From the NCBI GenBank assembly GCA_028704015.1, contig JAQVLT010000006.1, forward strand, positions 10,102 through 74,101: a DNA stretch of 64,000 bases. Direction: 5' to 3'. This DNA is from Patescibacteria group bacterium (GTDB taxonomy: Bacteria > Patescibacteriota > Patescibacteriia > Patescibacteriales > JAQVLT01). The notes beneath the pieces are model-generated. The model was not told the origin of the DNA. It was given only the letters and a program-made list of their open reading frames with translations, and did no database searches. A program made the translations under genes and the position numbers. Positions within the stretch are counted from its first letter, which is position 1; every line of letters begins with the position of its first letter. This document shows positions 13,616 through 49,349 of the stretch, piece by piece.

Positions 13616-13680
13616 TTTAGCTTTGAGCTTGAAGCTTTGAGCTTGAAGCTTAAAGATTTTTAAATCTAAAAGCTAACAGC

Positions 13681-27672: not shown

Positions 27673-27820
27673 GCAAAATGGCCTTAAAAATCTAAAAATC
27701 TAAAAATCTAAAAAATTTTAGCTAACATTAAATAAAATATAAACTAAAAAATATTAGTAAATTTGACAAAAAAATCTCTCCGCCGATTTATACACAGCCG
27801 ATCTAACATAATAAAATGTA

Positions 27821-27955
27821 ATTGTTAATTGTTAATTGTTAATTGTTAATTGTTAATTGTTAATTGTTAATTGTTAATTGTTAATTGTTAATTGTTAATT
27901 GTTAATTGTTAATTGTTAATTGTTAATTGTTAATTGTTAATTGTTCTCTTACCAC
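27821..27955. repeat. tandem octamer AATTGTTA x about 17
   Basis: Perfect head-to-tail repeats read directly. They overlap the last codons and the stop of the Mur-ligase gene (..LTINN*). Confidence 0.95.
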
Positions 27956-29426: not shown

Positions 29427-29447
29427 TCTGCCTGCCGGCAGGCAGGA
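29427..29447. repeat. GC-rich palindrome family member (TCTGCCTGCCGGCAGGCAGGA)
   Basis: Hairpin between the FemAB-family gene end and the Mur ligase start, flanked by AT-rich inverted words (ATAATTTCTAAT / ATTAGAAATTGT). Confidence 0.85.
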
Positions 29448-29469
29448 ATTAGAAATTGTAATTTAGAAA

Positions 29470-30546
29470 TTAAACGGCTCTCCTTATTTTTCTCAACAAC
29501 CCGTAAATTCCATACCATCCTCTACTAAACACCGCGTCAAACGTCCCCGGATAATCATATTCAAATCCGGCGAAGCCTTTTTTGAACCGCGTTACGCCCG
29601 GCCATTTCGTTTCGCTGATACCATAAAAATCATAATATTTATAACCCAACTCTTTGGCTAATTTAATGCAGTGCCATTGCAAGGCGTATGGCGCCATTAA
29701 ATTTCTGAATTCGTTGGAAGACGCACCGTGCATATAAGTAACCGTGTCGCCAAAAAACGCCACAATATTTCCGGAAATTATTTTCCCTTGATACTTCGCG
29801 AGAAATAATTTTACATTTAATTCAGAATTTGTAATTCGTAACCTGCCTGCCGGTAGGCAAGGTTGATAATTCGTAATTGATAATTGCTTTTGATAATATT
29901 CTTTCTCATGTAATCTAAATTTATCGCGTGTCTTGGTTTGCTCCATGATCTTCCACCACTCATCAAAATCAGCGCTCCCCTCTCCTTGAGCTTTGTCCTC
30001 CCTCCTTACGAAGGAGGGAGATAGAGGGAGGTCCTGGGGTGAGGTTATTATCTCAATTCCCTTTTTCTCCGCCAACCGGATATTATATCTCGTCTTTTCA
30101 TGCATATCTTTCAATAATTCTTCCTCGGACTTAGACAAATCAAGAAGTAAAGTTTTAGATGGCTGAATGTCAATTGTGCGCGTAACGCGTAACGCATAAC
30201 GCGTAACGTCAAATGTTGGCTCAAAACGTAAAAAAATAATTTTCTCTTTCTTAGCTTTTTTATTAATTTCATTAAAGAAAAAAGTTATATGTTCTACGTT
30301 ATGCGTTATGCGAAAGATTGGTCCGCGTGGCGAATACCAATACTTCATTCCGAGCGGCAATCGCTTCTCAATTAAAGTCGCAGCCGCCATGAACTCTCCT
30401 TTATCTTCTACGCCAAAACGCAAAACTTTATTCCCCGCGCTTGCCTGAAATTCACCCCATTCATAGGACTCCAAAAACGCGCTATGCTCCTCGGCACTTA
30501 CAAATTTATTCAATTCTTCTTTATTTTTTATTTCAACTAAATTCAT
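29470..30546 (-). CDS. FemAB-family peptidoglycan interpeptide-bridge aminoacyltransferase
   Basis: 358 aa with the N-terminus ...FLESYEWGEFQ and the C-terminal GVTRFKKGFAG pattern. It carries at least 4 in-frame repeat-derived inserts (see findings). Confidence 0.7.
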   Translation of the reverse strand: MNLVEIKNKEELNKFVSAEEHSAFLESYEWGEFQASAGNKVLRFGVEDKGEFMAAATLIEKRLPLGMKYWYSPRGPIFRITHNVEHITFFFNEINKKAKKEKIIFLRFEPTFDVTRYALRVTRTIDIQPSKTLLLDLSKSEEELLKDMHEKTRYNIRLAEKKGIEIITSPQDLPLSPSFVRREDKAQGEGSADFDEWWKIMEQTKTRDKFRLHEKEYYQKQLSITNYQPCLPAGRLRITNSELNVKLFLAKYQGKIISGNIVAFFGDTVTYMHGASSNEFRNLMAPYALQWHCIKLAKELGYKYYDFYGISETKWPGVTRFKKGFAGFEYDYPGTFDAVFSRGWYGIYGLLRKIRRAV

Positions 30547-31078: not shown

Positions 31079-31897
31079 TTACAACGGACTTTTGATATTT
31101 TTTAAACTTGGTTTTGTCACCTGCGTATAAATTTGAGTAGTCCTGATATTGCAATGACCCAAGAGCTCCTGCACATATCTCACGTCTGTGCCGTTTTCTA
31201 AAAGATGCGTAGCAAAACTATGACGCAATGAATGGAAAGTTGCGTCTTTTTTTATTTTAGCTTTGGTCAAGGCATTTTCAAAAATCTTCTGCGCCGTTCT
31301 GTCGGTTAGCTTGCCGCCTTGATTACTTTCAAAAACCAAATCTTCGCCTCGCCTTCCCGCCAAATAATTTTTTAATTCTTCCCGCAATTTCTCCGGCAGA
31401 AGCGTAACCCGATCTTTTTTTCCTTTAGCTTCTTTCAAGTGAATAAAATTATTGGCGAAATCGACATCTTTTACTTTTAAATTTATGGCCTCGCTCACTC
31501 GGAAGCCAGCACCGTAAGATAAGGCAACCAATAGTTTGTGTTTGCCATTGCTTATCGCACCAATCACTTCTTCAATTTCCTCGCGCGACAAAACCACCGG
31601 CAATTTTTTGGAAGTCTTGGCAAATTTTAAATCAATCGCCACCGCGCTTTTAAAAATTTCCCGGTAAAGATGTTTAATGGCGTTGAGATGAAGATTTATC
31701 GTCTGCGACGACAAACCGCGTTCTTGTTTTTTCAGCAAATATTTTTTTATCAACTCAATCTCCGGATCTTTTTTGACTACTTTAATAAATTTAAAATAAT
31801 CAACCAAGCAACCAAGGTAGCTCTTAATCGTTTGCCGGCTGTAATTCCGCAGTTTTAATTCATTCTCAATTTTTACCAACAACTCTTTAAATTCCAT
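31079..31897 (-). CDS. tyrosine recombinase, integron-integrase-like but lacking the IntI-specific insertion
   Basis: 272 aa. Box I GAGFRVSEAINLKVKDVDF, KGKKDR, box II HSLRHSFATHLLENGTDVRYVQELLGHCNIRTTQIYTQV (R..H-x-x-R..H..Y). N-terminal SAM-like RNYSRQTIKSYL. Confidence 0.9.
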   Translation of the reverse strand: MEFKELLVKIENELKLRNYSRQTIKSYLGCLVDYFKFIKVVKKDPEIELIKKYLLKKQERGLSSQTINLHLNAIKHLYREIFKSAVAIDLKFAKTSKKLPVVLSREEIEEVIGAISNGKHKLLVALSYGAGFRVSEAINLKVKDVDFANNFIHLKEAKGKKDRVTLLPEKLREELKNYLAGRRGEDLVFESNQGGKLTDRTAQKIFENALTKAKIKKDATFHSLRHSFATHLLENGTDVRYVQELLGHCNIRTTQIYTQVTKPSLKNIKSPL

Positions 31898-32007
31898 ATT
31901 ATTATGTTATACTTAACAACAAGAGTGCTGTTACTAACAAAATACCAAAATTTCGCATAATATACAACGACAAGTAGTTAATTAACATAAAATTCGTATA
32001 AAAACTA

Positions 32008-32186
32008 GTTCCGCCGAAATCGCTCGCTTACGCTCGCTCCTTTTCGGCGGAACGGCTTCGGAATCCTTCCTCGTCCCGCTCAGTCGCTCGCTCACGCTCG
32101 CGACATCGCGGAACTCGGAATACGCGAAATTGCCTTTCGTCCCGAAGCGTCGGGACTCCGGCAACTTCGCTTATTCCGAAGCCGTT
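32008..32186 (+). repeat. 179-bp GC-rich ORF-less element, copy E1 (at the attI-like junction)
   Basis: GTTCCGCCGAAA...TTTCGGCGGAAC hairpin, then a GGCTTCGGAAT...ATTCCGAAGCC long stem, bounded by GTT on both sides. Identical to E2 and E3 by eye. Confidence 0.95.
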
Positions 32187-32631: not shown

Positions 32632-32833
32632 GCGTATAACAACGCATATCTGGCTACGGAAATTGTGCATTAATAGAAACCTTGAGGTGGCACAATTTCC
32701 TCCGCCCAAATCCCGCACTAATTTTTGTGGGATTTGGATGGAGTTAAGCATTTAAAGAAGTTTGCATTAATTTATTGCTTGTTTAAGAAACAACGAAAAA
32801 TTAGCGCGGGACTTCAGATGATGCGTAAACGTT
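32632..32833 (+). other. attC-like site 1
   Basis: GCGTATAAC-AA-CGCATATCTGG ... CTTCAGATGATGCG-TAAAC-GTT. Confidence 0.65.
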
Positions 32834-33009
32834 CCGCCGAAATCGCTCGCTTACGCTCGCTCCTTTTCGGCGGAACGGCTTCGGAATCCTTCCTCGTCCC
32901 GCTCAGTCGCTCGCTCACGCTCGCGACATCGCGGAACTCGGAATACGCGAAATTGCCTTTCGTCCCGAAGCGTCGGGACTCCGGCAACTTCGCTTATTCC
33001 GAAGCCGTT
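32831..33009 (+). repeat. 179-bp element copy E2
   Basis: Identical to E1 by eye. It starts at the GTT of attC-like site 1. Confidence 0.95.
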
Positions 33010-33104: not shown

Positions 33105-33335
33105 ATGAATACTAAACCTTACTACAAATACAAAGATTTTTCTCTTTTTCACGGCAACTGCCTTGATATTTTAGCTAAAATTCCAGAAAATTCGGTTGAT
33201 ATGATCTTCGCCGATCCACCCTACCTACTCTCAAATGGCGGTTTTACCTGTCATGCTGGTCAAATGGTTAGCGTAAATAAAGGCCAGTGGGATGTAAGCA
33301 ACGGCCTAAAGAAAGATTTTGAATTTCATCTATGA
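33105..33335 (+). pseudogene. 5' fragment of a DpnA-like (beta-class, DPPY) N6-adenine DNA methyltransferase
   Basis: 76 aa. TKPYYKYKDF...SVDMIFADPPYLLSNGGF...VSVNKGQWD closely parallels the N-terminus of M2.DpnII (DpnA) as I recall it. It stops after about 25 percent of the expected length, and its TGA overlaps the next ATG. Confidence 0.7.
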
Positions 33336-34099
33336 AAATAATTTTTAATACAGCTCTTGCAAATAAATATACTAGCTTATCTCAAAAAGCCAGAGTTTTA
33401 ACTGAAACATGGGTTGACAATGAAATATTTTGTCCGAGTTGTGGGACAAATATTGAAAATTATGAAAATAATCGTCCAGTAGCTGATTTTTATTGCCCAA
33501 ATTGCAAAGAGGAATATGAATTAAAAAGCAAAAAAGATGGTTTGTCTAAAAAAATTGTTGATGGAGCTTATAAAACAATGCTTGAGAGATTAAAAAGCAA
33601 TAATAATCCGAACTTTTTTTTCTTAAATTACAATCCGATAAAATATGAGGTTTTAAACTTCTTGGTTATCCCAAAACATTTTTTTGTCCCTGATATCATC
33701 GAGAGAAGAAAACCATTATCAGAAAACGCTAGACGAGCTGGCTGGATAGGTTGTAATATCTTGCTTCAAGCTATTCCGCAAAGCGGAAAAATATTTTATA
33801 TAAAAAATGGAAATATTGAGAGCAAAGAGGATGTCTTAAAAAATTGGCAAAAAACTTTATTTTTAAGAGACTCAGACAAAGCTGAATTAAAAGGCTGGAT
33901 TTTAGATATAATGAGTTGTATTGATAAATTGAATAAAATAGAATTCTCTCTCGATGAAATTTATAATTTTGAAAACATTTTAAGCAAAAAACATCCGGAA
34001 AATAGACACATCAAAGATAAAATAAGGCAGCAACTACAATTTCTGAGAGACAAGGGGTATTTGAAATTTTTAGACAGAGGAAAATATAAATTAGTTTAA
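33332..34099 (+). CDS. DpnI-like methyl-directed (type IIM) restriction endonuclease
   Basis: 255 aa, collinear with remembered DpnI. SQKARVLTETWV, CPSC...NNRPVADFYCPNC zinc ribbon, EYELKSKK (D-EXK), NNPNFFFL, ARRAGWIGCNI, and the C-terminal wH IRQQLQFLRDKGYL..GRGKYKL. Confidence 0.8.
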   Translation: MKIIFNTALANKYTSLSQKARVLTETWVDNEIFCPSCGTNIENYENNRPVADFYCPNCKEEYELKSKKDGLSKKIVDGAYKTMLERLKSNNNPNFFFLNYNPIKYEVLNFLVIPKHFFVPDIIERRKPLSENARRAGWIGCNILLQAIPQSGKIFYIKNGNIESKEDVLKNWQKTLFLRDSDKAELKGWILDIMSCIDKLNKIEFSLDEIYNFENILSKKHPENRHIKDKIRQQLQFLRDKGYLKFLDRGKYKLV

Positions 34100-35250: not shown

Positions 35251-35348
35251 GTCGCCTAACAACCGATATCCGGTTCGGGGCTCAGCTCGCCCCTCTCCCA
35301 TATTTTTGCTCCCGTTGGTCGCAAAAACATCGGATATCGCGAAACGTT
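35251..35348 (+). other. attC-like site 2
   Basis: GTCGCCTAAC-AA-CCGATATCCGG ... CATCGGATATCG-CGAAAC-GTT. Its R'' is the exact reverse complement of GTTAGGCGAC at 33007. Confidence 0.7.
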
Positions 35349-35524
35349 CCGCCGAAATCGCTCGCTTACGCTCGCTCCTTTTCGGCGGAACGGCTTCGGA
35401 ATCCTTCCTCGTCCCGCTCAGTCGCTCGCTCACGCTCGCGACATCGCGGAACTCGGAATACGCGAAATTGCCTTTCGTCCCGAAGCGTCGGGACTCCGGC
35501 AACTTCGCTTATTCCGAAGCCGTT
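35346..35524 (+). repeat. 179-bp element copy E3
   Basis: Identical to E1 by eye. Confidence 0.95.
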
Positions 35525-35938: not shown

Positions 35939-36058
35939 TCATATAACAAAGAATATCTGGTTCAAGAATTTTTCTTGTTAATGTATAAGGAGTAAAAATT
36001 CTTTCACCCAAATTTTATTTCACTACGTTCAATAAAACTTCAGATATTCTTATACGTT
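35939..36058 (+). other. attC-like site 3
   Basis: TCATATAAC-AAA-GAATATCTGG ... TTCAGATATTC-TTATAC-GTT. Confidence 0.65.
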
Positions 36059-36232
36059 CCGCCGAAATCGCTCGCTTACGCTCGCTCCTTTTCGGCGGAA
36101 CGGCTTCGGAATCCTTCCTCGTCCCGCTCAGTCGCTCGCAAGCTCGCGACATCGCGGAACTCGGAATACGCGAAATTGCCTTTCGTCCCGAAGCGTCGGG
36201 ACTCCGGCAACTTCGCTTATTCCGAAGCCGTT
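36056..36232 (+). repeat. 177-bp element copy E4 (short variant GCTCGCAAGCTCGC)
   Basis: Same as E1 except for a 2-nt shorter inner hairpin. Confidence 0.95.
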
Positions 36233-36376
36233 AGCTGAAATATATATTTTTCTTTTGCCCTGCGGGGCAACTCTTAAAAAGAATTCAATTTTTGTTTTTT
36301 TATTAATTAGAAAGGGGTAATAAGTGTTTTCTTCGCTACGCTACAAAAACGATTTATTAATTAATCCAAAAAATAT

Positions 36377-38548
36377 ATGAAGAAACAATTAACAATTCTA
36401 CTAATTCTAACTTTTATTTTAGGGTTAGTGCCTTTCAATTTTTCAGAGGCGATTACTCAAAATCAAATTAGTGCCGAGGTTCAAATTGTTTGCCCGGACA
36501 ACTACGGAAATTGGTATAGCGGTTCGGGAACAATCATTGATCCTAAAGGAATTATTTTGACAAATAAGCACGTGGTATCCGACCAATATGGCGGAATTAT
36601 AAAAACCTGCTTTATTGGCTTTACGGAATCCATAAGCCAAGAACCAAATTTTGGTACTGAAACAAACCCAAATTTGGCAGAGGTAAAGTATTATACGACT
36701 GCAAATGATATGGATGCGGCTATCTTGTATCTCAATAATCTAACAAATAAAAGCTACGCTTATGTTGATATATGGAATTCCAACTCAAACGCTTTGCAAT
36801 TCGGCCACAAAATTGAAGCTATTGGTTTTCCCGGTATTGGCGGCTCGACAATAACTTATACTTCTGGCGATTTTAGTGGTTTTGGTAGTACGTCAGACGG
36901 AACACAAAATTACCTAAAGGCCACAACTCCACTCGAACATGGCAACTCTGGTGGTGCGGCATATAATCCAACAGGGCAATTTATCGGCATTCCAACAATG
37001 GTGGTTGCTGGCACTTTAAATTCTTTAAGTTATATCTTATCCGTCAATAGTATTAAAAGTTGGTTGTCTGGGATTTTAGGAAATAATTATCAACAAGAGG
37101 TTATCGAGCAAAAACCAATCGTAGAAAAACCAAAAGTCAGCGTGCAGAACGATATCACGCCGCCCGACATTAGTAAGTATAAACCAATTGCTACATGGAA
37201 TACGTTTATTTATTATGATTTATATAATAAAAATAATGAAACAATAAAAATGGGTCAATCAATAGATAATAAAATTATTCAAACTGGCATTTCTAACAAA
37301 ATTTCCTTATACACAAGCTACTCAGGAGATAAGACTTGGAATAAAACTATGGGTTATGACGTGGTTGAAAGTGAAAGCGGACTTTACAGTGTTTATTATA
37401 AATTCTCAAATAGTTTATCAGGATTAAACGATAAACCTTATGAAGAACAGGTGTTAAAATTAGATCTTGGCAGAACTGCAATTACTCCAATAATTGAATT
37501 ACCCGATAAAGAAGGCAGTTATTATTTTTCAATTAAATTTAAAGATAACGCAGGGAATGTTTCAAATGAATACATTTTAACGTATACATATTTAAAAGAG
37601 CATTATAAAGAATTAAAAACTTTGTATTTTTATTCTGATAAAAATTATAAAAATCTAATTGGTAGTTACGACATGAACTTTCTCTTTGATGGTTTTGATT
37701 ATTTGCGATGTATCACAAAATATAATACTGTCTATGTTCGATGGAAATATGATGATGACGATCAATTTCCTGGTTATGTAGCGAGAATCTTCCCTGACGA
37801 TATGTACGCGCTCAACCCTTCGGATACTATCAATAATAAAAACCTATCTTTAATAACAAATAATAAAATTCCCGTATATAATATAAATAAGTCAACAAAA
37901 GACGATCATGTATCCGATCTAAAAATATGCATGGATAAAAACGATACTCTGTGCAATTTAAGTGGCCAGGTAACATCGCTTTTGCTAAAACCAGTTGCAA
38001 ATAAGGACCTTTTTTTGGAAGGCAAAAATACTGTTGTAAAATTTCATTACAATTCAAATTTTGATCAAGGGTTTATGTGTGGATATCCTGATATAGAAAA
38101 TGAAAGTAAGCGCAATGCCATAGGAGAACCAAATTATTATATTCTAACTCAAGGTAATACTAATGCATCTAATGATTTATCGGAAAAGTTAAGCGGCCGC
38201 ATATTATTGCAAGTTGAAGCTCATGGTGAAGCTTATTATGTATATCCTAAAGACGGCAAAAGATACTATATGGCCAACGGTAATGAAGCATACAGAATAA
38301 TGAGATATTTAGGTGTTGGTATAACCAACAACGATTTGAATAAAATCAAAAATGATAAAAATTTCGCTAAAAAACACAGCGGAAAAATATTTTTGCAGGT
38401 TGAATCTCGTGGCGAAGCCTATTATATAGACTTTAACGGCAACGCCCATTATCTAAAGGATGGCGCCGCTGCATATACCGCCATGAGAGAATTAGGGCTT
38501 GGGATTACTAATAATAATTTAAATAAAATTCCAGAAGGAAGATTGTGA
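36377..38548 (+). CDS. secreted trypsin-like (S1/S1C-type) serine peptidase with large C-terminal extension and two terminal repeats
   Basis: 723 aa. Signal peptide or TM, TNKHV (His), DMDAAIL (Asp), GNSGGAAY (Ser). Two about 55-aa C-terminal repeats (LQVEaHGEAYY...GITNNdLNKI). Confidence 0.7.
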   Translation: MKKQLTILLILTFILGLVPFNFSEAITQNQISAEVQIVCPDNYGNWYSGSGTIIDPKGIILTNKHVVSDQYGGIIKTCFIGFTESISQEPNFGTETNPNLAEVKYYTTANDMDAAILYLNNLTNKSYAYVDIWNSNSNALQFGHKIEAIGFPGIGGSTITYTSGDFSGFGSTSDGTQNYLKATTPLEHGNSGGAAYNPTGQFIGIPTMVVAGTLNSLSYILSVNSIKSWLSGILGNNYQQEVIEQKPIVEKPKVSVQNDITPPDISKYKPIATWNTFIYYDLYNKNNETIKMGQSIDNKIIQTGISNKISLYTSYSGDKTWNKTMGYDVVESESGLYSVYYKFSNSLSGLNDKPYEEQVLKLDLGRTAITPIIELPDKEGSYYFSIKFKDNAGNVSNEYILTYTYLKEHYKELKTLYFYSDKNYKNLIGSYDMNFLFDGFDYLRCITKYNTVYVRWKYDDDDQFPGYVARIFPDDMYALNPSDTINNKNLSLITNNKIPVYNINKSTKDDHVSDLKICMDKNDTLCNLSGQVTSLLLKPVANKDLFLEGKNTVVKFHYNSNFDQGFMCGYPDIENESKRNAIGEPNYYILTQGNTNASNDLSEKLSGRILLQVEAHGEAYYVYPKDGKRYYMANGNEAYRIMRYLGVGITNNDLNKIKNDKNFAKKHSGKIFLQVESRGEAYYIDFNGNAHYLKDGAAAYTAMRELGLGITNNNLNKIPEGRL

Positions 38549-38605
38549 TAGCAAAATAGAAACGATAAATATAAATTTTAAAAAATTAGCCTTAAACAAA
38601 AAACA

Positions 38606-39811
38606 ATGATTAGTTTTGAAGTTAAAAATAATTTTCTTATACTTATCTACAATGCAGAGAGCGAAAACAATGAATGGGTTTTTAATAAAATAAAAGAGTC
38701 TGGTAAAGTTACACTCAGACAAACTTTTACTTTCACCGAGGAAGATTTACATAACATTAATCTAAAATCAGTAGATGAAAATGATTATGAAAAACCAATA
38801 AAATTTTCACTTGCGAAATTAGCAGATGGCTATTTTAAAATTGAAAAAAGAATATTACTAATAGATTATTTTGTATTTATATATAAAGACGTAAAAATAT
38901 CATTAAATTTTTTTATGTCAACAAAAAACATCTCAATATTTAAAATAATAAATAAACTAACAAGCGAAGATGTTTACATTGGGGGTAATAGCCCTGATGC
39001 CATACCCAAAAAAGTTTTTTTTGAACTTATTGAAAATTTTCCCAATAATTATGAGGTAGCTAAATACGTTAACGCACGTATTAGCTCCATTTTAAGAGAC
39101 TATTTTGACTCAACAATCGATAGCGAAAAAGAATACAATCAATACATGAATAAAAAAATAAGTCATAGGGGAAAAAATTTATCAATCCTATTTGTGGATA
39201 ATGAACTAAATAAATATAAAATCATTTTAGATAAACTCAGGGAGATGCTAAAAGATGAAGATAAATATAACGAAAAACAATGGCAAGAAGAAATCATACA
39301 AATAATATTATTTATATTTCCCAAATATATTAGAGTTTTTAACGAAGCTCCTGTAAGGGACACATACAACAACAAAACAAGACTTATTGATTACTTATTA
39401 ATTGATTCAAATGGAAATACTGATATTATTGAAATAAAAAAACCCTTTAGTCATTGTATTGTAACAAAAACCGTATACAGAGATAACTACATCCCCTTAA
39501 GAGAATTATCTGGTACCGTTATGCAAATCGAAAAATATATTTTCTATCTGAATAAATGGGGAAAAAAGGGTGAAAATAAATTAACAAATAAATATAAAAA
39601 CGAGCTTCCAAACAAATTTCAAATAAAAATTACAAACCCTGGCGGTATTATAATTATGGGTAGAGAAGATAAACTATCAACAGCTCAAAAACATGACTTT
39701 GAAGTAATAAAAAGAAAATATAAAAATATTATTGATATTATAACTTATGATGATTTACTGAAAAGATTGCAATTTATTATAGATCGATTAGAAAATTTAT
39801 CCAAAAAATAA
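38606..39811 (+). CDS. Shedu-like (DUF4263) PD-(D/E)xK nuclease
   Basis: 401 aa. C-terminal LIDYLLIDSNGNTDIIEIKKP (D...ExK), QIEKY, PGGIIIMGR, ITYDDLL, as in SduA-family proteins from memory. Confidence 0.6.
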   Translation: MISFEVKNNFLILIYNAESENNEWVFNKIKESGKVTLRQTFTFTEEDLHNINLKSVDENDYEKPIKFSLAKLADGYFKIEKRILLIDYFVFIYKDVKISLNFFMSTKNISIFKIINKLTSEDVYIGGNSPDAIPKKVFFELIENFPNNYEVAKYVNARISSILRDYFDSTIDSEKEYNQYMNKKISHRGKNLSILFVDNELNKYKIILDKLREMLKDEDKYNEKQWQEEIIQIILFIFPKYIRVFNEAPVRDTYNNKTRLIDYLLIDSNGNTDIIEIKKPFSHCIVTKTVYRDNYIPLRELSGTVMQIEKYIFYLNKWGKKGENKLTNKYKNELPNKFQIKITNPGGIIIMGREDKLSTAQKHDFEVIKRKYKNIIDIITYDDLLKRLQFIIDRLENLSKK

Positions 39812-39830
39812 TTAATTAAAATGCTATAAT

Positions 39831-39896
39831 GAGTTTTAGATTATGGGCATTCACCCCTAACCCCTCTGCCCAAAATCTAAAACGAAAAAAACAAAA
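39831..39896 (+). repeat. conserved hairpin with C-rich loop (TTTTAGATTaTGGGCA-TTCACCCCTAACCCCTC-TGCCCAAAATCTAAAA), copy 1
   Basis: A near-identical copy lies at 47763-47825. Both sit after the last ORF of a cassette. Confidence 0.85.
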
Positions 39897-39954
39897 CTGA
39901 ATTCTTTTTGCGAGTAATCCCAATAGCTATCGGGATTAAAGAAAAATATATACA

Positions 39955-40054
39955 TCAGCTAACACGGCATATCCGGTTGCGGCTTTTATACAAAAGCCTA
40001 CACCCACATTTGCCTCCGCTACGCTACGGCAAACATCAGATATGCCGAAACGTT
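39955..40054 (+). other. attC-like site 4
   Basis: TCAGCTAAC-AC-GGCATATCCGG ... CATCAGATATGCC-GAAAC-GTT. Its R'' is the reverse complement of GTTAGCTGA at 36230. Confidence 0.7.
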
Positions 40055-40228
40055 CCGCCGAAATCGCTCGCTTACGCTCGCTCCTTTTCGGCGGAACGGC
40101 TTCGGAATCCTTCCTCGTCCCGCTCAGTCGCTCGCAAGCTCGCGACATCGCGGAACTCGGAATACGCGAAATTGCCTTTCGTCCCGAAGCGTCGGGACTC
40201 CGGCAACTTCGCTTATTCCGAAGCCGTT
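40052..40228 (+). repeat. 177-bp element copy E5 (short variant)
   Basis: Identical to E4 by eye. Confidence 0.95.
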
Positions 40229-40420
40229 ATACGCAATTCAAAAAATATTTTTCTTTTAATAAGGAATTTTGACAGGCTTTTTAAAAAGGGGAATAAATTT
40301 GTTTTTTTATTTATTAGAAAGGGGTAATATTGTGTTTTTTCTGCTTTTGGAGGCGCAGAAAAAACGATTTACTTACAAGGGGAAAACGGGTACTATACAA
40401 TTACTTATTAGGAATAAACT

Positions 40421-41614
40421 ATGGCAAATAAAAATCTTACAAATGCTAAAAAGGCAAAGAATGATGAATTTTATACTCAATTTTCAGATATTCAAAAAGA
40501 AGTTGAGTCCTATCTTGAATATGACGCTAACACTTTCAAAGGGAAAGTAGTTTATAGCAACTGCGACGACCCATTTGAGAGTAATTTCTTCCGCTATTTT
40601 GTCCTAAATTTTAAAAGACTAGGGATGAAAAGACTTATTGCAACTAGTTACAAACCGTCACCAGTTGCGAATACTCAATTAGAGCTTTTTGGAAATGATA
40701 CTACTCTTAAACCCATGAAAGGACGCCCGAAAATAACTGCTAATAAATTCATTATTAACGAAGTTGGTGATGTGAATGGCGACGGTTCTTTTACGCTAGA
40801 AGATATTGCCCTACAACTTAAAGCAAACAAAAACAACGAATGGTCTCCGCTTGAGGGTGATGGTGACTTCAGGAGTGATGAGTGTGTCGAGTTACTCAAG
40901 CAATCTGATATTGTCGTCACTAATCCTCCGTTTAGTTTATTTCGTGAATATATAACTCAACTCTTTGAACATAAAAAACAATTTCTAATCATCGGAAATC
41001 TCAATGCAATAACTTACAAGGAAATTTTTCCAATGATCAAAGCGAATAAAGTTTGTTTGGGAAATAATGCAAGAGTTAATGGTGGTGCAATGTTTTATGA
41101 GATTCCAGAAGCTGTTGCAAACTTGGATCAAGTTCGTGAAATCAAAACGGATGAAAAAGGTAAAAAGGTATATATAACAAGAGTCCAGGGAGTTCGTTGG
41201 TTTACAAACCTTGACCACGGACGACTACACCAACCTATTCCCCTAATGAGTCATGCCGACGTCTTAAAGTTCAGTACAAATAAGCCATTCGTACACTATG
41301 ACAATTATGATGCTATTGAAATTGCTTTAGTAAAAAATATTCCTAAAGACTACAACGGCGTTATGGGCGTACCAATCAGTTTTTTAGATAAGTATTCACC
41401 CGATCAATTTGAGATTTTAGGGACAAGCGATAACGGTCTCGTAGATGACAAGTACAAAACATCGCTAGGTTTAAAAAAACAATTTGTAGAAGACTACTAC
41501 AAAGCTGGGGGCACTGGTGCCTACAAAGAAGGTAATCCAACAGCGGGTTTTTACGAAGACGGCATCGCAAAAATGGCTTACAAGCGAATTTTTATAAAAC
41601 ACAAGAAAAACTAA
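40421..41614 (+). CDS. N6-adenine DNA methyltransferase, EcoRI-methylase-like family
   Basis: 397 aa with N-terminal NDEFYTQ and catalytic VVTNPPFSLF (NPPF). Confidence 0.75.
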   Translation: MANKNLTNAKKAKNDEFYTQFSDIQKEVESYLEYDANTFKGKVVYSNCDDPFESNFFRYFVLNFKRLGMKRLIATSYKPSPVANTQLELFGNDTTLKPMKGRPKITANKFIINEVGDVNGDGSFTLEDIALQLKANKNNEWSPLEGDGDFRSDECVELLKQSDIVVTNPPFSLFREYITQLFEHKKQFLIIGNLNAITYKEIFPMIKANKVCLGNNARVNGGAMFYEIPEAVANLDQVREIKTDEKGKKVYITRVQGVRWFTNLDHGRLHQPIPLMSHADVLKFSTNKPFVHYDNYDAIEIALVKNIPKDYNGVMGVPISFLDKYSPDQFEILGTSDNGLVDDKYKTSLGLKKQFVEDYYKAGGTGAYKEGNPTAGFYEDGIAKMAYKRIFIKHKKN

Positions 41615-41615
41615 C

Positions 41616-42878
41616 ATGAAAAAAGTTAAAGTTTCAATTCAAGATGAAAACACGTTGGTTTTATTAGAAGATGGATCAAGGGGTGATTTAATTGACCTCA
41701 GGTCCATACATGAAGCTGATATTGATAAAACAACCATTACAAATGTGGTTAACTCCATAAAACGTGATGTTTTTAATGCTGAACTCCAAAAAGAAAAAAA
41801 TGTCATTAAGCGTGAAAATGAATTAAAGCTTGAACTCAAGGAAAAAGAGTTCAAAAGCCGCGCAAAAGAAGATTTAATGGAGAAAGACAAGGAAATTATT
41901 GCACTTAATTCAGAACTAAAAAATATCGCTGAGAAAACAGAATCAGCTATAAAACTTAAAGATATTCAAGAGAAGCAAAAGATAGAGGAGGAATACAGAG
42001 AAAAGTTGAACGAGAAAGAAATTGAGATAAATAACATCAAGCACGAGAAAGAATTAAGCGAGGAAAAACTAAAAGAACAAATCAAGTCAACAGAGACAGC
42101 TCTTGTTTCACTAAAGGAAATGCGCACCAAGATGAGTACTAAGATGATTGGTGAGTCTCTTGAAGTACACTGCGAAAATGAATTTAATCGTATTCGTCAT
42201 ATAGCATTTCCTAATGCAAAGTTTGGTAAAGATAATGCCGTATCAGAATCTGGTTCAAAGGGAGACTACGTTTATCGCGAAGTTGATGAAGATGGCAATG
42301 AGATTTTGTCCATTATGTTTGAAATGAAGAACGAGGATGACATTACCGCTACAAAGAAAAAGAATAAAGATTTCTTTAAGGAACTAGATAAAGATCGTCA
42401 GGAGAAAAAATGTGAATATGCTGTCTTGGTAAGTCTCCTTGAAAAAGATAATGAATATTATGATGACATTGTTCCTGTTTATGAATATAAACTTATGTAT
42501 GCTATCCGCCCCCAGCATTTCATTACTATCATTGGATTTCTACGACAAGCAAATATAAAATCACAGCACCTCAAGCGTGAAATTCACATACTTAACAATC
42601 AAAATGTTGACGTTTCAAACTTTGAAGCAAACATGAATGCATTTAAGGAGGCATTCTCAAGAAATTTCAGTTTGGCATCAACACAATTCTCTAACGCTAT
42701 TGCAGAGATAGATAAAACCATTGACCATTTAAATAAAGTCAAAGAAAATCTTCTAAAATCTGATAACAACCTACGACTTGCAAATAATAAGGCCACCGAC
42801 TTATCTATAAAGAAACTAACCTCCAATAGTCCAAGCGTAGCCAAAGCATTCGAAGAAATTAATAATGAAAATAAATAA
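41616..42878 (+). CDS. DUF2130 protein (coiled coil plus C-terminal PD-(D/E)xK-like module)
   Basis: 420 aa. [47 protein letters not shown] match the DUF2130 pattern from memory. Confidence 0.7.
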
Positions 42879-42880
42879 TT

Positions 42881-44044
42881 ATGAAAACCACACTAAAAAA
42901 TGACATCACGATAAAAGAAGTTTGCGATGGTTTTGTATATAATGAACTTGAAGGCAAAGGGCTGTTCGGTCTCTCGGGCAAACTAACTATTCAGCCAGAG
43001 TATCAGCGTAATTACATTTACGCTGACGGCAAATGTGACGTTGCTGTAATTGACTCAATTTTAAAAGGTTACCCAATAGGTTTAATTTATTTCAACCATG
43101 TTAGCACTGATAAATTTGAAGTGCTCGACGGACAGCAACGCATCACTAGTATTGGTCGGTTTGTGACAGGCAAGTTTGCCGTCAAAGATAAAAATGGACA
43201 TGAACAATATTACAGTGGCATGGCTACCAGTCAACGCGAGCAAATAATGAACGCTAAATTGTTAGTGTATTTGTGTAAAGGTGATGAGCTTGAGATTAAG
43301 GATTGGTTTAAAACTATCAATATCGCCGGAGTACCATTAACCGAACAAGAGATTCTCAATGCAGTATATTCTGGAACATTTGTTACTCGCGCTCGCGAAG
43401 AATTCAGTAATAGCCAAAATACCAACATTCAGAAATGGAGTACCTATATTGCAGGTGATATCAAACGCCAAGCATATTTAGAACGGGCTTTAGATTGGGT
43501 TTCTGGTGGAGAAATCGATAGCTACATGAGTAAACATCGGAACGATAAAAACATCACTGAACTGAAAAAGCATTTCGATACTGTCATTGACTGGGTTTCA
43601 ACCACCTTCACGGACGTTGAAAGTGAAATGAAGGGTCTTGAGTGGAACAGGCTTTACCAAACTTACCACAAGAAAAAATACAACCCAGCAATAGTTTCTG
43701 CTAAGGTTCAGAAACTCTATGCTGACGGCTTTGTAAAAAGTCGTAAAGGCATTTTTGAATATGTTTTAGGTGGAGAAGTAGAAACAAAACTGCTTGAAGT
43801 TCGAGTATTTGAAGACCCGACAAAACGTTCAGTGTATGAAGCTCAAACTTCCGCCGCAAAAAATAAAGGCATTTCAAATTGCTCGCATTGCGCGATTGGT
43901 CACGATGCGAACAAAACGAAAATTTGGGGTTTGAGCGATATGGATGCCGATCATGTTTCGGCTTGGAGCAAGGGCGGTGCAACAGATGTAAAAAATTGTG
44001 AGATGTTGTGTAAGACGCACAATCGAGCAAAGGGAAATCGTTAA
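42881..44044 (+). CDS. DUF262 (ParB/GmrS-like, DGQQR) plus C-terminal HNH endonuclease
   Basis: 387 aa. [19 protein letters not shown], and C-terminal [32 protein letters not shown]. Confidence 0.75.
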
Positions 44045-44145
44045 CCAAATAATTAAAATCAGTATGGAAAATGCTTAAAAAATAAATTGAGGATATAATG
44101 GAGAAAGTGAAATGTACATATATAATTTAGGCTAAAGACAGCAAT

Positions 44146-44173
44146 AAAAAACGCCTACCGGGGGCGTTTTTTG
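44146..44173 (+). terminator. intrinsic terminator
   Basis: AAAAAACGCC-TACCGGG-GGCGTTTTTTG. Confidence 0.75.
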
Positions 44174-44247
44174 TATTAATAGAGTTAAATACAGAAAGGT
44201 AAAGCATAAAAGAAAATGATAATTATTTGTTTTTGTGTCCCATTTTG

Positions 44248-44276
44248 TTGCGCTGGTGTCCCAAATATGCTAATAT
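44248..44276 (+). promoter_or_regulatory. promoter TTGCGC-17-TAATAT flanked and overlapped by a GTGTCCCA direct repeat
   Basis: tttGTGTCCCAttttgTTGCGCtgGTGTCCCAaatatgcTAATAT. It lies 40 nt upstream of the AAA ATPase gene. Confidence 0.5.
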
Positions 44277-44316
44277 ATTAAGTGTGGATAAAATAAATTC
44301 ATTTCATTTAAAATAA

Positions 44317-45363
44317 ATGTATATGCGCAAAAAAAACATTTTAAATTTAATTAAATATCATGCCGAAAAAAATGAGGCGGGTTTTAAAAATGAAGCCTAT
44401 GACATAGCAAGATATTTCGATTCTACTGGTGACTCTGAATTGGCTCAATATATTATGGCCTTACTGTCTGGCGCTAATACTTTTGTGCCGCAGGACAACG
44501 AATACAATCTTCCATTTTTTATGAAAGCAAATTTAGATAGTAGCAAATCCTTCCCACTTCCCACTCTTATAACAAACGATATAGTGGGCATTATAAATTC
44601 AATTGGACATAAGATTGGGGTTAACAAATTCTTATTTGAGGGTGATCCTGGAACAGGCAAAACTGAAACAGCAAAACAAATTGCTCGTATTCTTGAACGA
44701 GATTTATATGTGATAGATTTTGATAGTGTTATAGATAGCAAGCTTGGTCAAACGTCCAAAAACATTGCTTCCGTTTTTACAGAGTTACAAAGATTGCCTC
44801 ACCCAGAAAAAGTCATTATTTTATTTGACGAGATAGACGCAATAGCTTTAGATAGAATTAACTCTAACGATTTACGAGAAATGGGGAGAGTAACTTCTTC
44901 TGTTTTAAAAGGGTTGGATGGATTAAATGATGAAGTTGTTCTTATAGCCACCACTAATCTTTTTGGGCAATTCGATAAGGCTTTACTTAGAAGATTTGAT
45001 TCAATTATAAATTTTAATAGGTATAACAAAGAAGAATTGATTGAAGTCGCAGAATCTATGTTAAATGAGTTTTTAACAAAATTTAAATTTGCTAGTCGTA
45101 ATATGAGGCTTTTTAAAAAAATATTTTTAACATTAGACCATATTCCTTATCCTGGTGATTTGAAAAATATAATTAAAACCGCACTAGCATTTAGTGATCC
45201 AAATAATGAATATGATTACTTAAAAAAATTATATGAATCTATACAACCTAAAGACAAAAAGATAGATTTAAAAAAATTACAGTACAGCGGTTTTACGGTT
45301 AGAGAAATAGAAATATTAACAGGAGTTTCTAAAAGCCAAGTGTCGAGAGAACTAAATGTCTAA
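44317..45363 (+). CDS. AAA+ ATPase, IetA-like, with C-terminal HTH
   Basis: 348 aa. Walker A GDPGTGKTE, Walker B VIILFDEIDA, ATTN sensor. C-terminal FTVREIEILTGVSKSQVSREL. Confidence 0.75.
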   Translation: MYMRKKNILNLIKYHAEKNEAGFKNEAYDIARYFDSTGDSELAQYIMALLSGANTFVPQDNEYNLPFFMKANLDSSKSFPLPTLITNDIVGIINSIGHKIGVNKFLFEGDPGTGKTETAKQIARILERDLYVIDFDSVIDSKLGQTSKNIASVFTELQRLPHPEKVIILFDEIDAIALDRINSNDLREMGRVTSSVLKGLDGLNDEVVLIATTNLFGQFDKALLRRFDSIINFNRYNKEELIEVAESMLNEFLTKFKFASRNMRLFKKIFLTLDHIPYPGDLKNIIKTALAFSDPNNEYDYLKKLYESIQPKDKKIDLKKLQYSGFTVREIEILTGVSKSQVSRELNV

Positions 45364-47611
45364 AATTATGAACAATATTCTTCAATTAAAAGGTGTCCTT
45401 CAAGAACGTTCGCATATTGGCCGGCCAAGCTCTCGTAATGTTCCAAAAAATTCCCCAACTATAAATTCTGATAAACTAAAAAATTTGGTTAGACAGCTCC
45501 AGGATCTTGCTGATTATTGGACTAGGCAAAATATTATTAAGGGTTGCTTAGTTGATGTTTGTTATATCGACGTCATCGCTAAGAGTAATAGAATTAGTGG
45601 GTTATTATCAAGTAGTGGCTCTGTAAATGACTCTGTTGTTGGTGCAAGATTTGCTAATGAAGAGACAAGAAAACATGTGATTACGCATCATGTCAGCGAA
45701 AAAGTAATTCAGGATACAATTAAAAAATTAGAAGGCTGTATAAAGCTATTAGATGAAATATTTAGCGGAAAGATAACCCATGATTTGATTGGTGGTTTAA
45801 ATGATAAAAATATAAAGTATGAAAAATATGGGGTAACAAAAACAAATTTTCGAAATATAATTGTAGATTCACATTATGTAGAAGGTTTTACGGTTCCAAA
45901 TAACAGTGCAAACACAAATAATAGATCAATAATTACAATATATAAAACTAATGTTGGTTTAACTGAATTAATGAAAGATATCGGTATAAACGTTCAGCCT
46001 GATAAAATACTAAGTGAAACCACCTTGCTTTTATACCCAGATGAAATCAAACTCTTGTCAGACAAGGCACCATATCTAATTGCAATGTCGACAGAAGATA
46101 TATCTAAACTAAGTTTTAAAGATATTGTTGATGGCGCAAACAGCGAATCTGCTATAAAAACAATAGGATCACCCAAAGACGAACCTATTGTTGGCGTAAT
46201 AGATACTTTATTTGATGAATCAGTGTATTTTTCTGAATGGGTGGATTTTAGAAAAATGATCAATAAAGAAATACCTACGGAATCCAAAGATTATGTTCAC
46301 GGAACATCGGTAAGTTCAATTATTGTTGATGGGCCAACTATTCACCCAGAGCTAGATGATGGGTGTGGCAGATTCAGAGTTAGGCATTTTGGTGTAGCCG
46401 CACAAGGACAGTATAGCGCCTTTTCTATTATGAAAGCCATAAAAGAGATAGTTACTTCAAATCCAGATATAAAGGTATGGAATCTGTCTTTGGGATCCGA
46501 CAGAGAAATTAATCCCAATTTTATATCACCAGAAGCAGCTATACTAGATGAAATTCAATATGAAAATAATGTTATTTTTGTAATAGCAGGCACTAATAAA
46601 CGCGACGATGAAAGTAGGGTAGAAAAAATGATTGGCTCGCCCGCCGATTCAATTAATGCTATAGTTGTAAATTCGGTAAATAGTAAGGGATCTCCAGCAA
46701 CCTATTCCAGAAAGGGGTTAGTTTTATCATTTTTTAATAAACCAGACGTTAGTAGTTATGGAGGTGATAATGGCGATTATCTTAGGGTGTGTACACCAAC
46801 TGGCGAAGGTTTGTGCAGTGGTACTTCATACGCAGCTCCATGGGTAACTCGAAAAATTGCTTACTTGATAGAAGTACTCGGACTTAATCGAGAAGTCGCA
46901 AAAGCGCTAATTGTAGACGCTGCTGCTGGGTGGAATAGTATTGGCAATAATACTAAATTAGCACCCTTTGTGGGCCATGGGGTAGTACCTAAAAATATAG
47001 AAAACATTATAAAAGCGGATAATGATGAAATAAAGTTTATCATAAGTGGTATCTCTGAGAAATGGGATACATATGCTTATAATTTACCTGTTCCAACACA
47101 TAATAATAAACACCCTTTTGTTGCCAAAGCTACCTTATGTTATTTTCCCGGCTGCTCTATTAATCAAGGAGTTGATTACACAAACACAGAACTAGATATA
47201 TATTTTGGTAGAATTAAAGACAAGGGTATTAAGTCTATAAACAAGAATTGTCAAAATAATGATGACGGCGAAAAACATTATATATACGAAGGTAATGCCA
47301 GGGAATTTTACCGAAAATGGGACAACACTAAACATATAAATGAAATTCTTACAGATAGAGTTCATGCACGCGACGTTTACGATAAAGGCATGTGGGGACT
47401 AAGTATTAAATCAAAAGAAAGATTGAGTAGGCGTAGCAATGGTATTAATTTTGGTTTAGTTGTGACATTAAAGGAGATTTATGGAGTTAATAGAATTAAT
47501 GATTTTGTACATCAATGCGAATTACTTGGCTGGTTGGTAAATCGTGTAGATATAGATAATAAAATTGATATCTATAACAAGGCTCAGGAAATAGTTACAT
47601 TTGATAAGTAA
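45356..47611 (+). CDS. S8 subtilisin-like serine peptidase, IetS-like
   Basis: 751 aa with triad contexts VGVIDTLFD, HGTSVSSII, GTSYAAPWV. It overlaps the ATPase gene by 8 nt. Confidence 0.75.
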   Translation: MSKIMNNILQLKGVLQERSHIGRPSSRNVPKNSPTINSDKLKNLVRQLQDLADYWTRQNIIKGCLVDVCYIDVIAKSNRISGLLSSSGSVNDSVVGARFANEETRKHVITHHVSEKVIQDTIKKLEGCIKLLDEIFSGKITHDLIGGLNDKNIKYEKYGVTKTNFRNIIVDSHYVEGFTVPNNSANTNNRSIITIYKTNVGLTELMKDIGINVQPDKILSETTLLLYPDEIKLLSDKAPYLIAMSTEDISKLSFKDIVDGANSESAIKTIGSPKDEPIVGVIDTLFDESVYFSEWVDFRKMINKEIPTESKDYVHGTSVSSIIVDGPTIHPELDDGCGRFRVRHFGVAAQGQYSAFSIMKAIKEIVTSNPDIKVWNLSLGSDREINPNFISPEAAILDEIQYENNVIFVIAGTNKRDDESRVEKMIGSPADSINAIVVNSVNSKGSPATYSRKGLVLSFFNKPDVSSYGGDNGDYLRVCTPTGEGLCSGTSYAAPWVTRKIAYLIEVLGLNREVAKALIVDAAAGWNSIGNNTKLAPFVGHGVVPKNIENIIKADNDEIKFIISGISEKWDTYAYNLPVPTHNNKHPFVAKATLCYFPGCSINQGVDYTNTELDIYFGRIKDKGIKSINKNCQNNDDGEKHYIYEGNAREFYRKWDNTKHINEILTDRVHARDVYDKGMWGLSIKSKERLSRRSNGINFGLVVTLKEIYGVNRINDFVHQCELLGWLVNRVDIDNKIDIYNKAQEIVTFDK

Positions 47612-47762
47612 CCGTTAGTTTACAATTCCATCGGAGCTGTGTAAAAACAAAAGTACGTTTAATAGTATCACCAAAAAGTTTTAGGGATCAAACCCAAATA
47701 AAAGACAAAAATTCCCTCCCCTTAAACCCCTTCCTTTTTGCCTTTTATTTGAAAAGAATAAG

Positions 47763-47825
47763 GAGTTTTAGATTTTGGGCATTCACCCCTAACCCCTCTG
47801 CCCAAAATCCAAAACAAAAAACAAA
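47763..47825 (+). repeat. conserved hairpin with C-rich loop, copy 2
   Basis: Matches 39831-39896. It is preceded by a second AT-stem/C-rich-loop hairpin at about 47697-47755. Confidence 0.85.
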
Positions 47826-47879
47826 TTTATTATTAAGTAGCCTATCAAAATATTATTTTATTTAAAATATTTTTGAACA

Positions 47880-48005
47880 GCGTATAACACGGCATAATCT
47901 GGTTCCAGAATTTTTCATTAACAGTTAATAATAAGGAGTAAAAAATTCTTACACCCATATTTGCCTCCGCTACGCTACGGCAAACATCAGATATGCCGAT
48001 ACGTT
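47880..48005 (+). other. attC-like site 5
   Basis: GCGTATAAC-AC-GGCATAATCTGG ... CATCAGATATGCC-GATAC-GTT. Its R'' is the reverse complement of GTTATACGC at 40226. Confidence 0.7.
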
Positions 48006-49315: not shown

Positions 49316-49349
49316 GTACGAAATATCATTCACCTTTAATTCGTAAAAT

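Follow-up and report, generated by a model that had tools for sequence, protein, structure and literature searches.

Two defence cassettes of an integron-like array, located in a 64,000-nt stretch of DNA from a Patescibacteria group bacterium (contig JAQVLT010000006.1, positions 10,102 to 74,101; this whole stretch is called the window below), carry similar sequences at their 5′ and 3′ ends around unrelated genes. We show by sequence comparison that these frames make up a conserved palindromic module at the cassette ends, of which they are the arms and the inner cores; the module is self-complementary across families and is reused for unrelated cargo. The frames are homologous, complementary to each other within a cassette, covarying and widely distributed, and the cargo between them is diverse. 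An earlier reading of this DNA (the sequence-only reading) had drawn attention to the leader and hairpin shared by the two cassettes. Beyond that, the 5′ frame is an inverted copy of the 3′ frame and the two prolong the attC-like palindrome, they are not restricted to defence cargo (a cassette with a short-chain dehydrogenase (SDR) gene carries one), and they are the standard cassette end of the lineage rather than a peculiarity of two cassettes, as more than a hundred cassettes of uncultured Parcubacteria carry them.

Two cassettes share one frame around unrelated cargo

The window is AT-rich, and the array lies on the + strand from ∼31.9 to 53 kb. Its cassettes are parted by imperfect palindromes of ∼100–200 nt that begin with ..TAAC and end with ..AACG↓TT (the arrow marks the cassette boundary). 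We placed the limits of cassette 1 (36231–40052) and cassette 2 (40227–48003) by the ends of these attC-like palindromes and by GC-rich units without open reading frame (ORF), which are bounded at GTT. The features are:

36057–36230, + strand: GC-rich ORF-less cassette, copy E4, placed after the preceding attC and before cassette 1, with short 5′ and 3′ arms that adjoin each other
36231–36300, + strand: cassette 1 5′ arm, inverted repeat of 39885–39963, broken by the local hairpin GCCCTGCGGGGC (36257–36268)
36301–36362, + strand: cassette 1 5′ core, with a T-rich run, the G-box ATTAGAAAGGGGTAATA (36306–36322), GTG, a weak hairpin and AAAAACGATTTA (36345–36356)
36377–39811, + strand: cassette 1 cargo, trypsin-like protease (36377–38548) and Shedu SduA (38606–39811)
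39833–39883, + strand: cassette 1 3′ core hairpin; the stem has 17 bp and the C-rich loop TTCACCCCTAACCCCTC has 17 nt
39885–39963, + strand: cassette 1 3′ arm, with the local hairpin AATCCC..GGGATT (39916–39937), ending in the R″-like box CAGCTAAC (39956–39963)
39956–40052, + strand: cassette 1 attC-like site, R″ CAGCTAAC, L″ CGGCATATC ... L′ GATATGCCG, ..AAACG↓TT
40053–40226, + strand: GC-rich ORF-less cassette, copy E5
40227–40312, + strand: cassette 2 5′ arm, inverted repeat of 47816–47888
40313–40372, + strand: cassette 2 5′ core, with the G-box (40313–40329), GTG, the hairpin TTTTTTCTGC/GCAGAAAAAA and CGATTTA
40421–47611, + strand: cassette 2 cargo, EcoRI-type methyltransferase (MTase), DUF2130, DUF262-HNH restriction endonuclease (REase), canonical terminator (44141–44175), IetA and IetS
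47765–47815, + strand: cassette 2 3′ core hairpin
47816–47888, + strand: cassette 2 3′ arm, ending in the R″-like box GCGTATAAC
47880–48003, + strand: cassette 2 attC-like site, ..GATATGCCGATACG↓TT

The shared 5′ leader proposed by the sequence-only reading was recovered by pairwise alignment of 36230–36380 with 40226–40424, which gave 75% column identity; the identical core consists of TTTGTTTTTTTATT, A or T, ATTAGAAAGGGGTAATA, then GTGTTTT and AAAAACGATTTA, and the more degenerate similarity said to reach back to the GTT is also present in the alignment. The Smith–Waterman (SW) score of leader 1 against leader 2 was 73, compared with 22.8 ± 3.8 and a maximum of 38 for 500 dinucleotide shuffles. 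Moreover, leader 2 was the sole non-self match when leader 1 was scanned over the whole window, and the 17-mer ATTAGAAAGGGGTAATA occurs in the window only at 36306 and 40313. Hence, the similarity of the leaders is not limited to T/A runs. The 3′ hairpins (39826–39889 and 47758–47821) are 94% identical over 64 nt, with a SW score of 115 compared with 18.8 ± 2.6 for shuffles, and their DNA folds at −13.1 kcal/mol in cassette 1 and −12.8 kcal/mol in cassette 2 (z −7.2 and −4.6). The shuffle tests and the whole-window scan thus rule out low-complexity or chance similarity for leaders and hairpins.

Other claims on the two cassettes also held. The same variant of the GC-rich element precedes both leaders (35993–36233 and 39989–40229, 91%), and the cargo is unrelated, being a trypsin-like protease and SduA in one cassette versus an EcoRI-type MTase, DUF2130, a DUF262-HNH REase, IetA and IetS in the other. 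The 'variable hairpin' described within the leader stood in part, since it is significant in cassette 2 (−10 kcal/mol, z −4.7) but not in cassette 1 (z 0.85).

The 5′ and 3′ ends of a cassette are arms of one palindrome

In each cassette of the window the 5′ leader is an inverted repeat of the cassette's own 3′ trailer. The complementarity begins at the GTT/AAC boxes of the attC-like site and extends outward for ∼75–130 nt, and an inverted-repeat search of the window found such repeats running outward from GTT/AAC in every cassette of the array. The arms of cassette 1 pair 36230–36255 with 39938–39963 (26 nt, 92%) and 36270–36300 with 39885–39915 (31 nt, 84%). When each leader was aligned with its own reverse-complemented trailer, SW scores were 60 for cassette 1 (shuffles 20.5 ± 3.1) and 59 for cassette 2 (shuffles 21.7 ± 3.5), whereas swapped leader/trailer pairs stayed at background with 22 and 25. 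The alignment of leaders with reverse-complemented trailers spans their full length, and the G-box takes part, with ..AGAAAGGGGTAATA.GTG of the leader facing ..GCAGAGGGGTTAGGGGTG of the reverse-complemented hairpin loop.

We then folded circle junctions, in which the 3′ hairpin, 3′ arm, attC, 5′ arm and 5′ core were joined as in an excised circle. The predicted structure is one long hairpin with 52 inter-arm pairs in cassette 1 and 59 in cassette 2 (−79.2 and −69.1 kcal/mol), compared with −56.2 and −47.9 kcal/mol when the arms were swapped. In the fold of cassette 1, the local hairpins 36257–36268 and 39916–39937 face each other and form a four-way junction.

A further cassette of the array has 70-nt inverted arms of its own (33018–33090/35135–35215), with genes in 33107–34099. 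There a short N-terminal DNA methyltransferase-like ORF, which has an extended −10 element TGTTATAAT 7 nt upstream of its ATG, ends prematurely just 5′ of a DpnI-family gene (33332–34099) and may be decayed.

Covariation in the hairpin and between the arms

In 72 homologues of the 3′ hairpin, 88.6% of stem cells were paired compared with 32–51% in slid controls, and there were 134 double-change cells against 40 in shuffles (0/500), although the metagenomic copies are related and shuffle controls therefore overstate their independence here and in the arms. Eleven of the 12 variable pairs showed compensatory changes, and this variation sits in the lower stem; as the pattern used to collect the homologues prescribes the top of the hairpin, the conservation of the top itself lies outside this measurement. 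For the arms, the last 30 nt of the 3′ arm were aligned without gaps to the first 30 nt of the 5′ arm, and 83% of cells paired compared with 38–54% when slid. This helix had 129 double-change cells versus 44 in shuffles (0/500), with compensatory changes in 19 of the 30 pairs. Immediately outside the R box, two positions fail to pair in all 27 sequences (TGAAAT versus ACATCA), and indels are mirrored across both arms of a cassette. Moreover, self junctions were stabler than cross junctions in 15/15 cases, with means of −86.5 and −57.6 kcal/mol.

The frame family in genomes and metagenomes

Cassette 1 is present in the read sets SRR22315503 and SRR22315502. A metagenome scan with the exact leader core returned zero matches, and a relative from JGI (locus L053) differs from it by one base (ATTAAAAAGGGG). 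The 17-mer gave 50 matches in a genome scan; 48 of them are chance sites resembling Shine–Dalgarno (SD) sequences before an ATG in other phyla, and two (L041 and L008) are true leader homologues. The homologues in L041, L008 and L053 each begin at a GTT. In L041, a metagenome-assembled genome of a marine Patescibacteria, a cassette 2-type leader comes after an attI-like site and before a type I restriction-modification (R-M) system, and in L008 the leader follows an attC and a GC-rich element unlike that of the window. L053, whose recombinase is 86% identical to that of the window, has a cassette 2-type leader with one base changed in front of DUF4268, MTase and DUF262 genes, and in addition a cassette 1-like leader and a variant of the 3′ hairpin around the SDR gene.

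In L041, the attI-like site (4973–5082, − strand) that carries the framed type I R-M cassette is situated downstream of two genes, typA/bipA and one for an asparaginase, and no recombinase gene is adjacent to it. In L008, a different GC-rich unit takes the equivalent position. The leader homology between cassette 2 (40421–40429) and L041 (4773–4781) continues through ATG GCA AAT of the otherwise unrelated MTase and HsdR genes, which hints at a cargo junction just inside the coding region.

The top of the 3′ hairpin, GGGCATTCACCCCNNNCCCCTCTGCCC, was found on at least 120 metagenome contigs, usually with AATAAGGAG before it. By a strict pattern, an R″/attC-like site follows 60–150 nt after the hairpin in at least 70 of 109 testable copies, and by eye in most of the others. 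A 5′ partner could be sought only where the contig was long enough, in about half of the hairpin-bearing contigs; in 34 complete cassettes the trailer had a significant inverted partner 0.8–6.3 kb upstream, directly after a GTT. These 34 leaders follow one plan, from GTTAnnTGAAATA and ..TTTTCTTTT through a local hairpin and an A/T-rich stretch to A(G/T)AGGGG(GG), TATAAGGTG, a second hairpin and CGATTTAT, after which the sequence is unique. The second hairpin consists of a T-run, a GC core, a loop, a GC core and an A-run, and comes in at least seven sequence types. The inner boundaries of the frame are sharp, ∼10–15 nt past the leader hairpin on one side and at AATAAGGAG before the 3′ hairpin on the other.

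Long terminal inverted repeats (TIRs) around variable cargo, with conserved cores inverted beside it, could also be the ends of a transposon or of an element like a miniature inverted-repeat transposable element (MITE) that carries the cargo and moves independently of the array recombinase, and one cargo does hold an IS1595-type transposase. However, the repeats start exactly at the GTT/AAC boxes, nearly all copies adjoin an attC-like site inside an array, and cassette 2-type leaders were found after attI, attC or GC-rich elements alike. No target-site duplication was seen at the copies and no common transposase in the cargo, the same cassette occurs in different arrays with its breakpoint at GTT (L053b/L142), and viral contigs carried neither the leader nor the hairpin. 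We consider a transposon extremely improbable, and the MITE/TIR class was rejected on the position of the copies and the lack of duplications in spite of the TIRs.

Cargo diversity and turnover

The 88 ORFs of complete framed cassettes matched 64 Pfam families, and the cargo consists mostly of R-M and other defence genes. Many distinct type II R-M systems are present (MvaI/BcnI, TdeIII, HindVP, NgoPII, EcoRV, DpnII, HinP1I, Eco47II and Eco57I), alongside SMODS, SDH-protease/NfeD, DUF6119, RhuM, SDR and an IS1595 transposase. Framed cassettes have leaders of 100–200 nt and usually 2–6 genes, so that they differ from a single promoterless ORF whose 5′ untranslated region (UTR) is short, plus an attC. 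Among 561 cassette pairs, 98 share both frames and 95 of these have <5% cargo similarity; of the remaining three, two overlap partly in cargo (L085/L156 and L143/L166), and in the third (L053b/L142) a single cassette was met in two arrays. The frames of L073 are 94–97% alike to those of L108, L175 and L182, with zero cargo similarity. The cargo replacement inside a conserved chassis proposed by the sequence-only reading is therefore strongly supported, and proves general, as far as the chassis is concerned; replacement as a process would be one explanation of the pattern.

Such a pattern could be a relic of common descent, in which an ancestral cassette was duplicated, its cargo was replaced, and the frames are functionless with an inverted symmetry that is a historical accident. 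The two frames of the window are clearly homologous, and cassettes with partly shared cargo exist (L143/L166, L085/L156 and window cassette 2/L053c). Nevertheless, frames conserved to 94–97% join cassettes from different metagenomes that have no cargo similarity, stems and arms show compensatory substitutions and mirrored indels, and several frame families on the at least 120 contigs each keep their own self-complementarity. A mere relic is very unlikely in our view.

Traces of exchange are visible in the cores. L079, L099 and L148 have hybrid 3′ hairpins, whose stem halves come from different families with the crossover within the conserved top; therefore recombination took place in the cores, and because of hybrid hairpins the arms of L099 and L176 belong to different families. 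In L084 and L152 (∼3190–3330), the 3′ hairpin is joined directly to the 5′ core of the next cassette and the palindrome centre including the attC is deleted, thus two cassettes were fused. We found no 'empty' full-length chassis, in which the 3′ core would directly follow the 5′ core, the shortest spacing being 1262 nt; we saw only the minimal ORF-less 179-bp cassette and the fused cassettes of L084 and L152. An origin of cassettes in which an empty cassette inserts twice, once on each side of the cargo, was ruled out by reasoning, because the predicted order of cargo, 5′ arm, 3′ arm and attC differs from that observed.

Within cassette 2, a canonical intrinsic terminator (AAAAACGCCTACCGGGGGCGTTTTTT, 44141–44175) lies between the R-M genes and ietA/ietS, hence the cassette holds two separately transcribed defence systems. 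No remnant arms were found between its R-M and IetAS halves, only this terminator.

Recombinase and attI-like site

Two further features lie at the head of the array:

31079–31897, − strand: XerA-like tyrosine recombinase, 272 aa (Pfam Phage_integrase), divergent from the cassette array
31898–32012, + strand: attI-like region, two TTCG(C/T)ATAA boxes, the second ending in ..AAAACTAG↓TT (..CTAG↓TT), which is the start of the first cassette

The recombinase belongs to the Xer family, as it scored 218.9 bits with NCBIfam XerA_Arch, just below the cut-off of 220, and aligned end to end with XerA of Pyrococcus abyssi (PDB 4a8e, E 8e-43). The best PDB match was VchIntIA (IntI4, 2a3v), residues ∼212–243 of which, the IntI-specific insertion, have no counterpart in the window protein; with a TIGR02249 IntI score of 216 bits against a cut-off of 265, the enzyme thus lacks the additional domain of IntI. 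This insertion has been described as essential to integron function (PMC8138268). More than 5600 homologues, ∼70% identical, occur across Parcubacteria, and the enzyme is probably a member of the 'Cand' Xer-related subgroup of that study. An attI-like site stands beside the recombinase gene and the cassettes are joined at G↓TT. The two-box layout was present upstream of every homologous recombinase fetched, with the end ..AGTT in the window and at 10 homologous loci. The attC-like sites show AAC/GTT, R and L boxes that are paired, an asymmetric spacer and a 2-nt mismatch that does not vary, and their R boxes match the 7-nt consensus (R″ RYYYAAC/R′ GTTRRRY) in part only, for example CAGCTAAC/GTTAGCT. 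To either side of the locus the GC skew ranges from −0.15 to −0.24, with the deviation confined to the array; the attI-like region as a dif site of the replication terminus, as used by integrative mobile elements exploiting Xer (IMEX), was thus ruled out, as there is no skew switch.

At each fetched recombinase locus (including L053, L055 and L059–L063), an attI-like site is followed by a divergent array of small variable genes, and in L061 the recombinase gene adjoins scpA/scpB. Recombinase, attI-like site and array may together be an undescribed Xer-linked integron-like platform.

Frames as possible expression signals

The sequence-only reading had named a shared regulatory element as its alternative. 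Here the leader would be a promoter, a 5′ UTR, a translation enhancer or an upstream ORF (uORF), and the 3′ hairpin a terminator or mRNA stabiliser; in a variant, inward-facing end structures might insulate self-regulated and potentially toxic cargo from read-through. The frames indeed border the genes closely, the leader upstream of the first one and the hairpin downstream of the last one, and they contain SD-like purine boxes (AGAAAGGGG, AAGGTG and AATAAGGAG) and, in the cassette 2 arm, TTGACA. The 17-mer of the leaders also stands before ATG in unrelated Firmicutes, and short ORFs from GTG or TTG end at the main start (36324–36380 and 40330–40431). Hairpin covariation is compatible with RNA as much as with DNA, and the mostly R-M and defence cargo needs controlled expression.

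However, no canonical promoter and no intrinsic (Rho-independent) terminator were called at the frames, and the latter class was rejected, as the 3′ hairpin is followed by an A-run and not by a T-run, although the genome has canonical terminators such as that at 44141–44175. A conserved uORF or leader peptide was ruled out across 38 leaders: the length differences of their hairpins are not divisible by 3, a start codon is absent from some of them, and the peptides are not alike. No match in the window reached the gathering score of any family in Rfam 15, and the frames were not assigned to a known structured RNA. G·U pairs were not enriched on the + (coding) strand (17 G·T versus 31 A·C), which ruled out RNA structure on this strand. 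Moreover, many cassettes have their own −10-like boxes between core and ATG, which would place the core outside the mRNA, and elements that mirror each other within a cassette are not needed for expression. The regulatory alternative thus received no positive support from uORF peptides, canonical promoters or terminators, or Rfam; we keep it as an unlikely rival.

A proposed DNA module at the cassette ends

We propose that the attC-like recombination site is the centre of one long imperfect palindrome, whose two arms are the frames. A cassette runs from G↓TT through the 5′ arm and the 5′ core (a G-rich box, a short hairpin and CGATTTAT) into the cargo, and from there through the 3′ core (AATAAGGAG and the 17-bp hairpin with its C-rich loop), the 3′ arm and the attC-like site to the next G↓TT. 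In an excised circle, the 3′ arm, attC and 5′ arm of one cassette would become contiguous and could fold to a single hairpin with >50 inter-arm pairs that prolongs the R″/R′ stem, with two small local hairpins giving a four-way junction. Judged from these sequence patterns, the module probably acts as DNA, either by extending and shaping the folded recombination site or as accessory architecture for an Xer-like enzyme without the IntI insertion. The two cassettes would be alike by use of the same chassis family, and cargo may turn over inside the chassis, partly via homologous recombination in the conserved cores.

Several points weigh against a DNA module. Everything said on it, including the action of the recombinase, excision and folding, is drawn from sequence, and the arms could have stayed complementary because a palindromic module is inherited together, with no function today. 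In the predicted folds, both conserved cores fold locally at the base beside the cargo and do not pair with each other; therefore, stem extension alone leaves the cores unexplained, and protein binding or core-to-core recombination are candidates for their strong conservation. The leader hairpin of cassette 1 is not significant alone. The mismatched arms of L099 and L176 indicate that matched arms are the rule but that pairing is not obligatory. The bottom strand folded more stably than the top in 12 of 15 junctions, which is suggestive only, because the sequences are related. Finally, the AT-rich arms are located upstream of genes and include hexamers that resemble TTGACA and TATAAT, and a role of the arms in expression is possible.

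Comparison with known systems

Neither arrays nor frames of this kind were described in the literature that could be searched. The window system resembles integron cassettes with lineage-specific attC sites, such as the Vibrio cholerae repeats of the superintegron, in several respects. Its array is adjacent to an attI-like site and a divergent tyrosine recombinase, G↓TT marks the cassette borders, and the sites form imperfect palindromes that have AAC...GTT at their ends and L-like boxes inside. A single homogeneous family of sites serves unrelated cargo, and ORF-less cassettes and defence cargo occur; the latter is already known for sedentary integrons (bioRxiv 10.1101/2024.07.02.601686). It differs by a recombinase without the IntI-specific insertion and by a palindrome that extends ∼75–130 nt past the R boxes on both sides and is several times longer; for this reason half of the palindrome is found at the 5′ end of the cassette. 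In addition, conserved cores flank the cargo, and framed cassettes are mostly multi-gene (0.8–6.3 kb) with leaders of 100–200 nt, whereas classical cassettes have short 5′ UTRs (PMC4670013). By analogy with CTXφ-type IMEX, a recombinase of the Xer family would act on a hairpin folded from inverted sequences, but the window system has no phage genes, is not at a GC-skew switch, and consists of small cassettes with attC-like R/L boxes and a GTT crossover context. CTXφ-type elements integrate by Xer at a folded single-stranded attP hairpin, which is forked and ∼150 nt long, and accumulate in tandem at one chromosomal site. The pdif modules of Acinetobacter plasmids are likewise discrete modules of diverse cargo, bounded by inverted Xer-type sites (28-bp duplex) in alternating orientation; to our knowledge they have no long hairpin, no array beside a recombinase gene and no conserved cores. 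Cassette-borne expression elements include short ORFs of the attI1 ORF-11 type and cassette promoters. As in the former, a short ORF preceded by a strong SD lies upstream in both leaders of the window and ends at the cargo start, but this ORF is unconserved in the family and the element is mirrored at the 3′ end.

How integron cassettes gain their recombination sites is an open problem, and the framed cassettes bear on cassette birth. What makes this site family unusually informative is the recognisable trace that it leaves to either side of the cargo, and since near-identical frames (94–97%) surround unrelated genes, gain, loss and exchange of cargo can be mapped to the nucleotide in metagenomes. 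Attachment sites with attC-like hairpins that are paired with an Xer-like recombinase without the supposedly essential domain bear on the origin of integrons from Xer systems, and Parcubacteria, in spite of tiny genomes, are a large reservoir of mobile modules for R-M and defence. As a speculation that we hold to be rather unlikely, the palindromic chassis could be the unit of cassette birth, with DNA captured at the apex of an 'empty' hairpin, cores as points of capture and exchange, and cargo shuffled between chassis by core recombination; the whole would be an Xer-based proto-integron, in which an unspecialised XerA-like enzyme without the IntI insertion uses very long folded hairpins, pervasive in Parcubacteria and serving mainly as a bank of R-M and defence genes.

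The GC-rich unit and other repeats of the window

The GC-rich ORF-less unit of ∼175 nt (the '179-bp element') has seven copies in the window (31995–32185, 32830–33008, 35345–35523, 36057–36230, 40053–40226, 48004–48180 and 49118–49316), always starting exactly at the GTT of an attI or attC and closing with a ..GAAGCCG↓TT of its own. Its predicted fold comprises a short arm hairpin and a long attC-like hairpin; the DNA of copy E4 folds at −50.1 kcal/mol (z −5.8), with TTCCGCCGAAA/TTTCGGCGGAA as the first hairpin. The unit looks like an ORF-less cassette with abutting arms and resembles a proliferating 'empty' cassette. A sub-threshold Rfam match to the glmS ribozyme (39966–40143, − strand; 25.4 bits against a gathering score of 37, E 0.0046) spans an attC and the GC-rich element and is probably an artefact of the nested GC-rich hairpins.

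Outside the array, a palindromic motif ..CCTGCCTGCCGGTAGGCAAGG.. recurs in intergenic regions of the backbone (13656–13691, 29436–29470, 29820–29885, 61169–61204, 62228–62286 and 62426–62506) and may be an element like repetitive extragenic palindromes or a terminator family. A tandem array of ∼20 copies of the heptamer TAATTGT (27791–27951) lies directly upstream of a Mur-ligase gene (− strand) and overlaps its start. Finally, a 63-nt direct repeat (11005–11067 and 11519–11581, 92%) with two small hairpins inside brackets the ORF at 11082–11516.

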